From a candidate division FCPU426 bacterium (GTDB lineage: Bacteria > Oederibacteriota > JAAXVQ01 > JAUVAV01), in the NCBI GenBank assembly GCA_030637655.1, contig DAOWGI010000016.1, positions 1-45,227 on the forward strand: a stretch of 45,227 bases of DNA, written 5' to 3'. Made by a program: the position numbers. Every line of letters starts with the position of its first letter. The stretch's first letter is position 1. This document shows positions 6,001-18,000 of this stretch, one piece after another.

Positions 6001-9000
6001 GTACATCATACCAGTACGTGTTCAATCCTATGCCCTAATGACCCGGGGAAAACTGACAATACTCAAAGCCTATGAAGCAACTTCAGCTGAGATTGCTGAA
6101 TTACAGGCCAAGCGAGGCACGTATTTTTGGGAAAAACCCGGTTTTTTTGAAGCCTAATCGATTTATTATTTACAAATCTCTTACTTTATGGTAACAATTT
6201 TAAATCGCAGTTTGGATCACTCGTCCGGGATGCTCGATTCTTTTCTAACCACACCTATTGTTCCCTGACAAACTTAAAATCATAACCACACCACCTGCCA
6301 CACTTTGAGCATTGTAGGGAGGAAAGCCAAGTGAAGAAATATTTATTATGCTTGTTTATGTTCTTGCTTATGCTGGGGATACAGACTCAGGTGCATAGTA
6401 CGATCAGCACAGCTGAGAAAGCTGTTTTTGTGCATATGATGATTAGTTTTGCCACTCCGGAAATTTCTGGTCGCTGGGATGGCTGGAATCACAGTAATCA
6501 GAAAATCAAGCATTATCCTGATGTGCTGAAATCCAATGGTCAAAGGGATATTGCTTCTGTCTATTACCCAATTATTGGGCCCTATGATATGACAGATCCG
6601 CATTTGGTGGAATACCACTGCCAACTCATGAAAATGTCGGATATTGACGGTGCGGTTTTTGATCTGGGATTTTTTATTGAACCCAATACACTGGATAAGA
6701 AAAAGGCTGATTTTACCTACCGCTCAATTCAATTATACCTACAATATTTTAAGGCATACCACCTTAAAGGTGCGGTTCTCTTTGAGGATAAGGCCAACTG
6801 GATTTGGAATGACAAATTAAAGACGCGTGAAGATACGGTGGAAGCTGCGATTAGCGATTTGGAAAACTGGATGGGTGTGTTTATGCCGATTCAATATAAA
6901 ATAGACGACAAACCGCTGCTCTTCATTTACAGTTATAATCAGACTGTGGGAGCGCGTGGAAAAAGCCGGTTATCACCTGTTGAATTGAAAGCCTGGAAAA
7001 AGACATATCCCCGCAGGATCCGGCCTATTGTGTTGGCCAATGAGTATCATGCGGACTATTATGGTGTGCATGATGGTGTATTTCAATGGCCCGAGATCAT
7101 TGGTCCACCTCCTAAAAACACAGATTATACTTTTTTTAATGATCTGGAAAAAGAAAAGCGTTTATGGAAGATCAACGACCTATCCATCAAAGAGCAGATG
7201 GAGAAAAGGGAATATAAATGGGTTTGCGGGACTATTTGGCCGGGATTCAATGATGCCGGCTGCATGTCCTGGGGGTCTGGACATAAAGTAATTCCGCGCT
7301 ACTCCGGAGATTTGTATAAATATCATTGGGAGCGGGTCATACATACCCAATATCCGCTTGTATTGATTGCCACTTGGAATGATTGGTTTGAAGGAATTAA
7401 CATCGAACCAGCCAAGGAGTTTGGCTATCATTATCTGGAATTAACACGGCAATGGGCCGGGCAATGGAAAGGTTCTCAGCCAACAACTGCGAATTTAAAA
7501 TTAGCTGAATGGATCTATATGATTCGAAAAAAATCGTCTCATAGCCGGAAAGCTCTAAATGCTGCAGATCAGGCTAGCCGCGCAATCATGCAAGGAAATT
7601 ATGAAAAAGCAGAAAATCTGCTAAAACCATTTGTACAAGTCTTGAAAATAGCTGAACAATAATAGTAAATAAGCGTTTCAAAACGAAACAAAAATAGTTT
7701 TAATATTAAAATAAAATCGTATTATAAAGCGATGATTGGATTTCCCGTAAATATATGCTATACTTAAAATACAAACTTAACCAAAACATCCAAAATGTCA
7801 AGTTTGTATTTTCTTTGAAAATCGAATATTTCAAGGGGGAAAAGGAAATTTGTTGAAAAAAATGGAATCTAAAAAGTGGATATCGATTCTAAATTTTTTG
7901 GGGAACAATGTAATAAAAACCCGCTTATTTGTATCTAATAAAAAGTAAAGCAAGCTTTGTTTTTTTGAGGAAGTATGGTAGATTATGTATCATCTTTTTA
8001 CACATACAACCTTGCATTCATTACTATATTTACCCCTAAGTTTTTCATAGAGCTGTGTGGGTTCATGAAAAACAACAACTTGGATACTGGCATTTACAAC
8101 ACCTACTATTTTATTGAGCCGGACAATAAAAAAGTTTTGTATTCTGAAAGGGGGTTTGAGATCACATCATTTTAGGTTTTAAGGCAGTTTCGAAATCCAC
8201 GACAAAACCTACCAGTTTGACCACTGATTTTAAAAAAAACATGAGGTGAAAACATTATGAAAAAATTACTTATTGCTGTATTAGGTATTGCAATGATTGC
8301 TATGGCATCAACCCAAAGTCGCGCCGCTTCGAACTGGGTTAATTATAATATTACAGTTACGATCGTTGCTGGTGAGAATTTGATTGAGACAGTAGATACA
8401 CCTGAAACTTGGGGAATTTTAACAGCAGGTGGAGGCGCAGTTTTTTCGAATAATACTGGTACAAATCCATTTGATGGCCAACCACGCATGTCAGTGCGAA
8501 ATGTCGGTTCCAGCACCATTGATTTACAAGTTCGCAGTCATGTTGGTGGGACGATTAGTTTTGCGACTACCGGGGTTGATGCCGCAGCAGTTGATGTTGC
8601 AACCTTAGCTGCAGTTTACACAGCGCAGAATAGTCAGGATGATGGTGCCGGCACTCCTTACTATATGCTGTTAAATGAGGACTTTGGTGTTGAGGATCTT
8701 CTACCTAGTGACGATACATTTGTATCTTGCTCTGTTGGTGATGACAACACCTTGGGTATTAATACCCATGCCGGGCCAGGTGCTAAAGGCTATAGCGTCG
8801 CGACGATGGAAGTTCGTCATCTTCGTTTTCGCTTTTTGCCACCAACATCAATAACCACGCCAGGTGATAACACTATTTATGTCGATATGCGAATTGTTGG
8901 TACTATCTAAGAAGGGAATTATTTTTAGGAAGTGCCTAAACCAATATGTTTGGGCACTTCCTATTTTTTGTTGATTTAATAAAATATATTTGTGAAAAAA

Positions 9001-15000: not shown

Positions 15001-18000
15001 AGAGCGGGCGGAAAAAGCCCTGGTTGAAGCTCTTGAGCCGGAAGAAAACCTGGCAGAAAAGCGCGACCAGGAGCTGGCTGAGCAGCGGGCCCAAGAGAAA
15101 GCCAGGCTCAAGGCCTTGAAAGCTCAGTTGAGAGCTGAGATTAAAGAGGTTAGAAAGGAATTAGATCGAATAAGTGAGCTTATTAAGCTGGGACAGATTC
15201 CATCCATCCAGTTTGAGTCCGGTAAGACGATTCTTCGGCGTAATTCGTTCAAGTCTCTGGATCAGATCGGCGCTATGCTTGAAAAATATCCGCGGATTAA
15301 GGTAAGGCTGGAGGGACATACGGATTCACAAGGAAAAGCTAAGCTAAACCAGAAACTCTCCCAGCGTCGGGTAGAATCAGTCAAGGAATACATGTTGGGC
15401 AAGTTTAAATTAAATCCCTATAACCTTATACCAGTAGGCTATGGAGAAACCCGGTCCATAGCGGACAACAAGACCGCCAAAGGCCGGGCTGCCAACCGGC
15501 GCGTGGAAATCAAGGTTCTGATGCCGGCCGGCATGGAAGCCCCTGCGGCGCCTTTCGGCCCCAAAGACGCTGCTGAAGATACAGTGAAGGAACCCATCAG
15601 CCCGGAAGATATTGTTTCTTACGAGGAATTGGACAAGCTGTGGGAAAAATTGAAAGTTTACGAGATGCAGATGAGTACTGATGAGGTTGAGGAATTATTT
15701 GAGCAGCAGCATCAGGAAAACGGCAAAAATCAGGTGAAGGAAGAACAGAAGAAAAAACAGAAGGAAAAATAATGCAACTACTAAGCCAAGAGTTAATATT
15801 GCCACAGCGATATTGGGGCACATAGTTTATAAAGCAGAATATCTAAGTTCAAAACAAATTCAAATAAGACAAATCCGAATGATAAAAAATACTGTTTGCC
15901 GTAATATGTCAGTGAACCGTGGTTAAACAAAGGTTGTCATCCCCGAATGTTTGTATCGGGGATATGGTTTGAAAAACCGGATTCCCGCTAAAACCATGCG
16001 GGAATGACAAAATTGTCTTAATATGGCTTTTCGCAAAAGAAATTAACTGACATAGTACTGTTTGCCAATAAATTGTGTATAATTATAATGTTTTGGATAT
16101 TAAAATGTTGAAGTTGGAATTTGTCCTTCGACTTTGCTCAGGATGGTGAGCTTGTCGAACTATTTCGAATTTAATGTTTTTTAGTTCCGGCTGGTCCGGG
16201 TTAGGAAGAGTTGGATGGCAGTGAATAGTCAATCAGATGCAACACATGTTTTCGGACATATACTAATTTATCTAGTGGCCGGAATATTCGCGGTTTTTAT
16301 TCCCACCTGGGTGTTTGCCGGGTCTCTGTCAGAGATATGGCAGGCGGCGATTCAGGCGCACCTGGTGAAAAATTATTCCCAAAGTATTCGCCTGCTGGAA
16401 AAGTATCTGCAGCAAGTGGAAGATCCTGCCAAGAGCACCTCTGCGCGGTTTTTTTTAGCTGAGAATTATCGCTATAATGGTCAAAGCTCAGAAGCTTTGC
16501 CTATATACCAGACACTGGCTGTCTCAGGTCCGGCCGGGCCCTTAAAAATCAGCGCGCGTTTCCGCGAAGCTGAACTTACCTATACCCAGGGAGATTATCG
16601 CCGGGCTGCCAGGATTCTAAATAGACTGGCCAATGACTCCCAGGCGGATTTTCTTTTTCCGCAAATTCCGCTGGCGCAGGTCAAAGCCAACCTGAAATTA
16701 AAGCGCCTGTCCCAGGCCCGGAGAGTATTCGCGAAATTGTTGCAAACTTTTCCGCGTTCCTTACTGGATCCGGAGATCAAGTTTCTCTATGGGATTATGA
16801 AAGAATATCAGGGCAATAATATTGACGCCCTGAAGATTTATGAGGAATTGGGAGATAATCCGCTTGCCTGGCTGTTCAGCGGAGCTATTCTTGAATCTCA
16901 AGGTCGGTATTTACCGGCGATCGAAGCTTATAACCAGGTCATAGCCAACGCGAAGATAAAATCGTATGGCCAAATGGCAAAGTATTTTAAGATCCGTGCC
17001 TTTTATAAGTCCGGCGATTTTTTAGCCGCGGAAAGCCTTAGCCGGAAATTTTTATCCCAATATCCCAAAAGTGATTTTCGTGCCAGGACCGCTTTGCTGC
17101 AATTGCTAATCCTGTTCGCGCAGGCCCGCTATGAGGAGATGTTGGACACCTATACCGGATTGGCTGCAGTCCTGGATTCACTTTACGGGGAAGACGGCTC
17201 GCTGGTTGATTTTATCCTGGCCGAGGCGGTGTTCAATATCGGTTCCTATCAGGAAGCTATTGAGTTTTACGAAGAGGCGCTTCCCTTAACCCGGCCAAAC
17301 CGGGCTGAGATTCTATTAAGACTGGCCTATGTTCAGAAGGAAGTCAGGAATTGGGAACAAAGTTATAAACGTATCAATGAATATTTTCGGGCAACAAAAA
17401 ATCCGGATCCTTTAGGGTATTTAATTGCTACCCAGGCCAATCTGGCAACCGGGCGGGAACAAGGCGCTTTTCAGGCCGTGCGCGCGCTCGCGAAGTCTCA
17501 GGCTCCCCTGGCTCATATGGGATTATATTTTTTGGCAGCCTATTATCAGGATAAAGGAAAACCGCAAAAGCTTGTGTCCCACTGGGCGCTTTTGGAAAAA
17601 GACCTGGACAAGTGCACACTAAAACCGGAGTACCGTGAAGTTGCCTCCTGGGCCCGCACGCTGGTGGCTGAGGCATATTATCAAGAGCGTAATTTCCTGT
17701 TGGCCCGGAAATATTACCAGCTGGCGCTTGAACTTTATCCGCATGGACGTATTGAAATGCATAGTTACTCGGGTTTGGCCTGGTGCAGCTTTAAACTTCA
17801 GGATTACAACGATGTCCAGGTCATAAGTGAGCGCTTGTTGGCGCTCAAACAGGTTCCGGAGGATTTGGCTACGGAAATCTCCCTGATACAGGCACATGCC
17901 TCTTTTAATTTGCAGCAATATGATAAGGCGATTCATACTTACCAAAATTGGCTGAAAGCTGTTGGCAACAATCCTGCAGTTCCAACAGTATATTTTCAGA

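Follow-up and report, generated by a model that had tools for sequence, protein, structure and literature searches.

How a fibre might be built by chaperones without an usher is the question raised by a seven-gene operon in a 45,227-nt stretch of DNA (the window; contig DAOWGI010000016.1) from a candidate division FCPU426 bacterium. In diderm bacteria, the usher is held to serve chaperone-built pili as catalyst and pore alike. The survey's reading was that this operon suggests a donor-strand fibre with no usher, handled by a T9SS-like route and ending in a tip with a T9SS C-terminal domain (CTD). The usher-less, T9SS-like reading is supported here and strengthened by the SprA translocon in relatives, by hairpins after the pilin genes and, in other lineages, by payload tips and CTD anchors with a donor strand; the wording 'tip' calls for revision.

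A conserved seven-gene operon

The operon consists of seven co-oriented open reading frames (ORFs), which are real and conserved, and two hairpins:

8257–8910, forward strand: g00119, family-1 pilin-like subunit 1, with a signal peptide, a donor-strand-like N-terminal extension and a β-sandwich with a final C-terminal strand
8926–8963, forward strand: strong hairpin with a T tail, in the pilin 1–chaperone 1 spacer
9046–10008, forward strand: g00120, chaperone-like protein 1, soluble and with two Ig domains (ORF called from 9022, likely start 9046)
10552–11199, forward strand: g00121, family-1 pilin-like subunit 2
11218–11262, forward strand: 20-pair hairpin, in the pilin 2–chaperone 2 spacer
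11292–12254, forward strand: g00122, chaperone-like protein 2 (ORF called from 11286, likely start 11292)
12257–13048, forward strand: g00123, third chaperone-like protein, with g00124 as its probable cognate subunit
13077–14024, forward strand: g00124, pilin-like domain of family 2 that lacks a donor strand, plus a T9SS-type CTD; a putative acceptor-only leader and anchor
14021–15772, forward strand: g00125, PorV/SprF-like barrel of the outer membrane, joined by a coiled linker to a peptidoglycan-binding OmpA domain; probably the cognate shuttle and anchor

The chaperone family is present in 11 of 15 genomes of the order, that is, in 10 of the 14 relatives, and 7 of these 10 keep the subunit–chaperone–g00123–CTD–barrel order unbroken; both counts agree with the earlier claims of conservation across the order. 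In the remaining three, contig ends cut two loci, and the locus of G003 is split between separate places. A g00124 homologue accompanies the chaperone in all 11 chaperone-positive genomes. The modules also occur apart: pilin–chaperone pairs stand without a CTD gene at L029, L031, L032 and L033, and g00123–g00124–barrel sets without family-1 pilins in G003 and G001. None of the seven proteins has a lipobox pattern, sigma-70 promoter matches are not above chance (20 versus 22.3), and no RNA holder is listed for the region.

Pilin-like subunits and their chaperones

The survey had described two pilin-like subunits, each with a chaperone-like neighbour, and the ORFs and their paralogy reproduce this: g00119 and g00121 are paralogues (26% identity, E = 3 × 10−8), as are g00120 and g00122 (35%, E = 3 × 10−58). 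Both subunits are pilin-like, with a signal peptide, a predicted N-terminal donor strand and an incomplete Ig-like fold, and score highest when the genome is scanned with a donor-strand PSSM. In the g00121 model (pLDDT 86.9), mature residues 1–21 are unpaired, and positions 10, 12, 14 and 16 are hydrophobic in 96–100% of 140 homologues. TasA is again the best Foldseek match of this model, at E = 2.7 × 10−3; with no match reaching 10−3 and Z ≤ 6.2 in the VIA fold comparison, the fold match is weaker than the earlier figure. The Foldseek list comprises mostly donor-strand filaments, the weak matches of this subunit type being TasA, CfaB and TLP-1, and also CS17, CS20, CsuA/B and CupE. WxL pilin chains are absent from the fold matches listed, an absence that excludes nothing. 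The WxL Pfam model matched none of 140 family-1 or 48 family-2 sequences at E 0.01, the Elr donor consensus occurs in 3 of the 140 family-1 sequences, and PDB sequences gave no convincing match to the pilin alignment profiles. Family 1 (1006 representatives) and family 2 (42 representatives), both uncharacterised, show no detectable homology when their profiles are compared.

The spacers between pilin and chaperone genes fold below their shuffles in 13 of 13 cases (z −2.3 to −8.4), and the hairpin after the pilin gene is probably a stoichiometry element favouring excess pilin.

In sequence, the chaperone-like proteins show weak matches to the WxLIP proteins. g00120 matches WxLIP_PGBD at E = 7 × 10−6 (26.5 bits, under the cut-off of 27.3), weak matches occur in 5 of 18 g00120/g00122 homologues (best E = 7.7 × 10−6), and Enterococcus faecium WxLIP1 is the best PDB sequence for the family profile (E = 0.056–0.066). 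PapD_N is not among the matches of these 18 homologues, and all 18 lack a C-terminal membrane helix, with no 19-residue stretch above 1.7 hydropathy past the signal peptide. Scanning the genome collection with g00122 gave a single, irrelevant fragment. g00123 matches the g00120/g00122 family by profile (92.6%); its top atlas cluster is 'molecular chaperone' (score 0.92, PapD_N in 44%), and PapD_N matches one of its eight homologues (E = 0.029). PDB sequences showed no convincing match to its alignment profile. As g00123 adjoins family-2 pilin domains in every locus, it is probably best read as the own chaperone of g00124. When chaperone 2, pilin 2 and the g00124 N-domain were predicted as one complex, the median was 0.52 against 0.40 for the control, which speaks neither way on binding.

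A strand-less pilin domain fused to a CTD

g00124 has a signal peptide; its mature residues 1–200 are a family-2 pilin-like domain and residues 202–291 a T9SS-type CTD, in a model (pLDDT 83.8) that supersedes an earlier caveat of poor quality. T9SS CTDs are the best matches of the last 90 residues, as the survey had it, with PorZ (Z 9.8), PorU (9.3), mirolase (9.2) and a SprA-bound CTD (8.8) as top four VIA matches at rmsd 2.1–2.6 Å, and CHU_C is found in 11 of 17 CTD-fused homologues. From residue 17 onwards, the N-domain has TLP-1b as its best fold match (Z 6.8); over both pilin families the matches span Z 5.8–6.8, with no Foldseek match at 10−3. An extra N-terminal strand is present in 23 of 31 standalone family-2 proteins versus none of the 17 CTD-fused ones. 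Lacking a donor strand, g00124 therefore takes the position of a chaperone–usher tip in strand polarity. It carries no payload, this genome shows no payload tip, and no longer fused forms of the N-domain were found, which is weak evidence. Since no payload is present and a cognate, peptidoglycan-tethered barrel for the CTD is encoded next to it, g00124 is more likely the leading, finally cell-bound end than an adhesive tip, and the earlier term needs revision.

That neighbour, g00125, had been described as a PorV–OmpA protein. Its OmpA domain is a clear match; the barrel matches the PorV/PorQ family model NF033709 but at only 49 bits (E = 4.8 × 10−13), under the 90-bit cut-off. CTDs and barrels co-diverge (29 pairs, rho 0.25, p = 5 × 10−4), and g00125 is probably the cognate shuttle and anchor of g00124. 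Such pairing is generic in this genome, where 29 of 72 CTD genes lie directly 5′ of one of 48 barrels.

Related loci in other lineages

The order tip, pilin, chaperone and then a protein combining strand, stalk and CTD is seen in 5 of 7 other-family loci. The tips there carry propeller, protease or lectin-like payloads with a C-terminal pilin domain, and the terminal subunits end in CTDs. Among the best 150 of the 1006 family-1 representatives are five fusions of payload and C-terminal pilin domain and four of pilin and CTD. CTD proteins encoded 3′ of the chaperone bear an N-terminal strand that matches the pilin strand of their own locus (15 pairs, p ~10−5), with 4 of the 15 pairs ranked only 5th to 14th. 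Of 12 metagenome pilin loci with sufficient flank, 9 have a CTD gene downstream; a chaperone follows a CTD–barrel pair, and no pilin was detected, in at least 17 of 80 metagenome loci, which apparently belong to one lineage. The related lineages with payload tips would have the opposite polarity, a payload tip and a donor-only stalk–CTD terminator, and the CTD end would be the cell-bound end in both.

Export machinery

There is no usher in the operon, and the absence of usher family PF00577 reported by the survey now extends from 0 of 15 genomes of the order to 0 of 99 of the phylum, with PF13953 in 0 of 15 (Escherichia coli controls positive). No large barrel recurs next to the chaperone in the loci read. 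Recurrent 600-aa neighbours were considered as ushers and ruled out as O-antigen-ligase-like TPR proteins. The SprA translocon is present in 12 of 15 genomes of the order and in 5 of 5 other-family carriers (one match at 253 bits against a cut-off of 200). It is not in this assembly, which is 91.5% complete; its neighbours lptF/G and greA are missing with it, and the absence, coinciding with the missing lptFG block, is probably an assembly gap. GldM and GldN were found in 0 of 5 genomes, the control giving no match either, and BamA and LpxC in 5 of 5; the host has both of the latter. Genes for ExbB, ExbD and TonB neighbour the operon.

A proposed assembly route and its alternatives

Direct evidence for this system consists only of gene content, conservation and predicted folds. 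We regard it as fairly probable that the operon specifies a chaperone-built donor-strand fibre made without an usher. A reduced T9SS would serve its export and anchoring: the fibre would pass through SprA with the CTD in front and then be retained by the barrel. Judging by their N-terminal hydrophobic stretches, all the proteins would be exported by Sec. By homology and gene pairing, soluble periplasmic g00120 and g00122 would fold their own pilins and g00123 would fold g00124. Having a groove but no donor strand, g00124 would start the chain, and models and sequence pattern suggest that each pilin inserts its N-terminal strand in the subunit before it. If the known T9SS mechanism applies, the cognate barrel g00125 would recognise the CTD of g00124 in the SprA pore and the CTD would exit first, a thin linear fibre being drawn out behind it. 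The fibre may then be kept on g00125, with the OmpA domain gripping peptidoglycan like a fused PorP–PorE. Its likely role is in adhesion or as a biofilm scaffold.

Several points count against this route. Both pilin families have weak fold matches; they share no detectable profile homology, so the docking of g00119 and g00121 onto g00124, which we infer from gene linkage only, is unproven; CTD–barrel pairs are generic, and the modules also occur apart. The literature yielded no precedent for a non-covalent polymer passing SprA. The commonness of CTD–barrel pairs suits two independent modules lying side by side, a pilin–chaperone fibre exported otherwise and, as an ordinary T9SS cargo, g00124, helped in folding by g00123 and shuttled by g00125; the modules' separation in G003, G001, L031 and L032 and the lack of homology between the pilin families fit this as well. 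Contiguity in 7 of 10 relatives and co-presence in all 11 chaperone-positive genomes argue otherwise, as do the nature of the cargo domain, itself a strand-less pilin domain, and the cognate pilin strand on CTD proteins elsewhere, and we consider independent modules unlikely.

Assembly might instead occur outside, with g00124 displayed on g00125 as nucleator and the pilins crossing the outer membrane singly to polymerise there, as TasA on TapA. An acceptor-only, anchored g00124 is what one would expect of a nucleator, TasA is the best Foldseek match of g00121, and no polymer would have to thread through SprA. Because the pilins have neither CTD nor lipobox and the chaperones are soluble, single pilins have no evident export route, and a chaperone-capped growing end would be expected in the periplasm; we think this quite unlikely. 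Five large barrel-like proteins without informative Pfam match, in an incomplete assembly, could harbour a very divergent usher building a conventional chaperone–usher pilus, which the usher searches and the neighbourhoods of the chaperone genes make very improbable. Least probable is a polymer that stays periplasmic and braces the envelope as a strut fixed to the OmpA-barrel: the operon has no dedicated pore and g00125 does have an OmpA domain, but shuttle loops bind CTDs on the extracellular side (PMC10994853) and related tips bear payloads.

Beyond the CTD-first route proposed for this operon, we tentatively suggest a third donor-strand pilus route, a wider proposal that we hold possible rather than probable. 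SprA would do the usher's job, and one CTD-bearing terminal subunit would tow a fibre, put together in the periplasm by soluble chaperones, over the outer membrane and onto a dedicated barrel–OmpA anchor, with the CTD at either chain end (acceptor-only here, donor-only elsewhere). The T9SS would be a reduced one, possibly driven by ExbB/ExbD/TonB; the route would occur widely among uncultured diderm lineages and might yield TLP-1-like orphan fibres, for which the two pilin families are candidates in environmental samples. The system of this operon would itself carry usher-less chaperone chemistry over to double-membrane bacteria, give an example of a T9SS that exports a polymer by one of its ends, and place T9SS use on record outside Bacteroidota.

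Comparison with known systems

Chaperone–usher pili (alternative CFA/I, archaic Csu/CupE, classical type 1/P) share with this operon Sec-exported pilins with a donor strand, here a predicted one, and soluble periplasmic chaperones, here possibly PapD-like; the fold matches to their pilins are weak. They differ in the usher, and the proteins here fall outside their Pfam families and include CTD subunits and a PorV-like barrel. TasA fibres depend on SipW/TapA, and the operon encodes neither. TasA fibres and the TLP-1a/b orphan pond fibrils (PMC11494351) are donor-strand filaments, and TLP-1b and TasA are the best fold matches, with weak Z and no sequence match.

The closest precedent, missed by the survey, is the usher-less Elr/WxL pilus of Enterococcus faecalis, reported as confined to Bacillota (bioRxiv 10.64898/2026.10.17.759780, preprint) and the only usher-less chaperone pathway that we found in print. 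Both systems have, here by prediction, N-terminal donor-strand pilins and a two-domain chaperone fold-related to CsuC/CfaA. The Elr layout of acceptor-only tip with C-terminal pilin domain, pilin, chaperone and donor-only terminator with C-terminal sorting signal is met in the related loci, whereas this operon has an acceptor-only pilin–CTD fusion, g00124, with no Elr equivalent. The host here is a lipopolysaccharide diderm, and the pilins lack a WxL Pfam match; the Elr chaperone (DUF916/DUF3324) has a C-terminal membrane helix that the chaperones here lack, and LPxTG–sortase sorting in a monoderm contrasts with CTD and barrel. Because co-expression of pilin and chaperone alone sufficed to polymerise ElrD (bioRxiv 10.64898/2026.10.17.759780), the present system is testable without culturing its host.

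T9SS export runs CTD-first (PMC10994853), and type B cargo is anchored through CTD, PorP/SprF shuttle and PorE (PMC12618676, PMC9143113). Type B cargo and this operon have in common a CTD gene with its own barrel gene behind it, an OmpA-domain peptidoglycan tether and SprA in the lineage; here the host lies outside Bacteroidota, barrel and OmpA are fused, GldM/GldN are undetected and the cargo, a pilin domain, would be expected to bring a polymer with it. We found no published description of an usher-less chaperone/donor-strand pilus with T9SS export and anchoring. Type V pili, in which Mfa1 has the T9SS-secreted tip Mfa5 (PMC7835359), likewise have one CTD-bearing component, but their shaft pilins are protease-matured lipoproteins without PapD-like chaperones, and there is no lipobox here. 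Filing the system as a chaperone–usher, WxL or type V pilus was rejected because each fails on a defining feature: the usher; the WxL domain, membrane helix and LPxTG; and lipoprotein prepilins, respectively.

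An usher-less seven-gene operon

All seven genes that the survey had assigned to an usher-less chaperone–subunit fibre operon are present as claimed: two family-1 pilin-like subunits (g00119 and g00121), their chaperone-like neighbours (g00120 and g00122), a third chaperone-like protein (g00123), a family-2 pilin-like domain fused to a type IX secretion system (T9SS) C-terminal domain (CTD; g00124) and a PorV-like barrel–OmpA protein (g00125). The complete order is uninterrupted in 7 of 10 chaperone-positive relatives, again as reported, and cut at contig ends in 2 of the 10; in one relative (G003) the pilin–chaperone pairs lie apart from the g00123–g00124–barrel block, and in another (G008) the g00123 homologue is split into two open reading frames and the CTD–barrel pair occurs twice. 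Four order loci hold pilin–chaperone pairs without a CTD gene, counting against strict linkage of the two. Of the 15 order genomes, 11 encode the chaperone, as do 18 of the 99 phylum genomes; a 63%-identical homologue is labelled candidate division FCPU426 and further homologues Ca. Firestonebacteria. No usher was found in the order and phylum genomes searched, in agreement with the survey. Five large barrel-like proteins of this genome carry no annotation.

About 60 bases 5′ of both pilin genes are alike (8200–8260 and 10490–10555) and share one identical run of 16 bases that contains the ribosome-binding site, a pattern consistent with tandem duplication. A further relative (G001, L055:9006–12528) has no family-1 chaperone match; 5′ of its g00124 homologue it carries two homologues of g00123 and a pilin-like gene of family 2, so the shaft family seems to be exchangeable.

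The surroundings include a sugar-utilisation-like cluster with repeated carbohydrate-binding-like proteins, ABC sugar transporter genes, a 1,247-aa barrel-like protein and a 1,741-aa secreted protein:

1610–4396 and 6331–7662, GH99-like genes
23823–42556, sugar-utilisation-like cluster
29376–32377, CTD–PorV pair inside that cluster

Two pilin families and their chaperones

A profile built from 22 family-1 subunits retrieved 1,006 representatives at E 1e-3 or better. In an alignment of 140 members, hydrophobic residues take up mature positions 10, 12, 14 and 16 in 96–100% of sequences, and positions 9, 11, 13 and 15 are mostly polar; none of the 140 matches the WxL Pfam family. In the g00121 model (pLDDT 86.9), residues 1–21 are unpaired and the final element is a strand. 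The survey's likening of the subunit to TasA held in rank, TasA still being the best Foldseek match (followed by CfaB, CS17, CS20, CsuA/B and TLP-1a), but not in significance, with an E value of only 2.7e-3. As no match reaches 1e-3 and structure comparison by VIA gives Z scores of at most 6.2, the fold is by itself weak evidence; the donor-strand reading of family 1 draws jointly on the residue pattern, the model and the gene architecture. All 13 spacers examined downstream of a pilin gene contain a stable hairpin, which would fit production of pilin in excess.

The T9SS CTD proposed for g00124 is borne out by its model (pLDDT 83.8, from a 48-sequence alignment), in which residues 202–291 are closest to T9SS CTDs (PorZ, Z 9.8; PorU, 9.3; mirolase, 9.2; SprA-bound NucA CTD, 8.8). 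Residues 1–200 match TLP-1b from TLP-1b residue 17 onward (Z 6.8, r.m.s.d. 3.8 Å), the first strand of TLP-1 being the donated one according to PMC11494351. This N-terminal domain defines family 2, 42 secreted proteins with no detectable homology to family 1. In an alignment omitting three of the 42, all 17 CTD-fused members begin at the first core strand, and 23 of 31 standalone members, counted by hand, carry about 15–25 additional N-terminal residues. g00124 is thus a predicted acceptor-only pilin–CTD fusion.

Among the chaperones, g00120 matches WxLIP_PGBD slightly below the cut-off, as do 5 of 18 g00120/g00122 homologues weakly, and the two best PDB sequence matches of the family profile are both Enterococcus faecium WxLIP1 at non-significant E values (0.056 and 0.066). 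Profile comparison relates g00123 to this family (92.6%). In the atlas, the cluster closest to g00123 is a family of chaperones, 44% of whose members carry PapD_N. No membrane anchor follows the signal peptide in any of the 18 homologues or in g00123. Standalone family-2 members flank the g00123 homologue in two loci, and g00123 is probably the chaperone of g00124.

Proposed export and anchoring

BamA and LpxC, present in 5 of 5 genomes, indicate an LPS diderm. Homologues of SprA, about 2,100–2,200 residues long, were found in 12 of 15 order genomes; 5 of 5 carriers from other families encode somewhat shorter versions. One homologue reached 253 bits, above the cut-off of 200, and no control genome gave a match. 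The 91.5%-complete assembly of this genome yielded no sprA. It also lacks lptF/G and greA, which adjoin sprA in 4 of 4 relatives read, making an assembly gap the likely cause. GldM and GldN gave no matches in a search run without a positive control.

Downstream of the barrel gene (16215–23415) lie genes for a TPR protein (PorW/SprE model, E 1.5e-26, below cut-off), an uncharacterized 300-aa protein, ExbB, two ExbD proteins and a TonB-like protein, a set that also follows the barrel gene in at least five relatives and is a candidate energiser of a T9SS in which GldM and GldN were not detected. Two relatives (L115:4771–7827 and L116:4061–7264) encode a second, half-length protein of about 1,020–1,070 aa with a weak SprA match; the one scanned has a LysM match.

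The survey's assignment of g00125 stands: the protein combines a divergent barrel of the PorV/PorQ family with an OmpA domain. Across the genome there are 72 CTD genes, 29 with a barrel directly 3′, and 48 PorV-like barrels in all, so a CTD–barrel pair alone is ordinary there. CTD similarity is correlated with barrel similarity (rho 0.25, P = 5e-4), consistent with cognate pairs such as those described for Flavobacterium in PMC12618676 and PMC9143113. Together with SprA across the order, these inventories amount to a large T9SS-like secretome outside Bacteroidota.

T9SS substrates exit CTD-first with their shuttle, as stated in PMC10994853. We propose that chaperone-primed pilins would polymerise in the periplasm with g00124 as the starting subunit; its CTD would lead through SprA with the fibre behind, and g00124 would stay on g00125, tying the fibre to peptidoglycan. 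Lineages whose CTD proteins are donor-only would instead have the CTD on the last subunit, and in both polarities the CTD end would be the cell-bound end.

Probable tips and anchors in other lineages

Among the best 150 family-1 matches, five join a payload to a C-terminal pilin domain and four a pilin domain to a CTD. Besides g00119 and g00121, the assembly of this genome yielded no family-1 domain and hence no payload tip. Five of seven loci from other families encode a payload–pilin fusion, a pilin, a chaperone and then a protein comprising an N-terminal strand, stalk and CTD, with the barrel next in three of the five. In a metagenome sample (the best 80 of 90 loci, not deduplicated), a pilin lies within 4 kb in 32 of 80, and a CTD gene follows in 9 of the 12 pilin loci with at least 3 kb of downstream sequence.

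We compared CTD-protein N termini with pilin strands for 15 pairs, each from a locus in which a CTD protein lies downstream of a complete pilin, excluding five loci without a full pilin and one duplicate. The locus's own pilin ranked best in 8 of 15 pairs, in the top two in 11 and 5th to 14th in four; the summed score was 377 versus 225 permuted (P about 1e-5, related lineages not being independent), and 310 versus 191 without two near-duplicates.

Also counting against strict linkage of the genes, a chaperone stands without a detected pilin in at least 17 metagenome loci that seem to come from a single lineage. In L143 and related loci of one lineage, where no pilin turned up nearby, a lone chaperone follows a small CTD protein and barrel amid motor and signalling genes. 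Elsewhere, L030:1608–2357, 5′ of a pilin, fuses a donor-strand-like N terminus to a CIA30/CBM11-like domain without a CTD; such a protein could bind carbohydrate and cap those fibres that a g00124-type subunit anchors. Genes for O-antigen-ligase-like (Wzy_C) TPR proteins are found repeatedly between those for pilin and chaperone (L159:803–2617, L145:3530–5554 and similar loci), which suggests pilin O-glycosylation.

Comparison with known pili

As in the survey, we found no paper, in a search that covered subscription literature thinly, on a pilus built with chaperones that uses T9SS parts for export or anchoring, and we lean towards regarding the operon as a genuine variant of donor-strand pilus biogenesis that has probably not been described before. 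By the membership tests of Elr/WxL pili, chaperone–usher pili and type V pili (Mfa5; PMC7835359), it belongs to none of the three, which rules out filing it under any of them. Among known systems, the Elr/WxL pilus of Enterococcus faecalis comes closest, described in its report as usher-less, chaperone-guided, sortase-anchored and confined to Bacillota (bioRxiv 10.64898/2026.10.17.759780); judged from genes and models, the operon described here would work alike.
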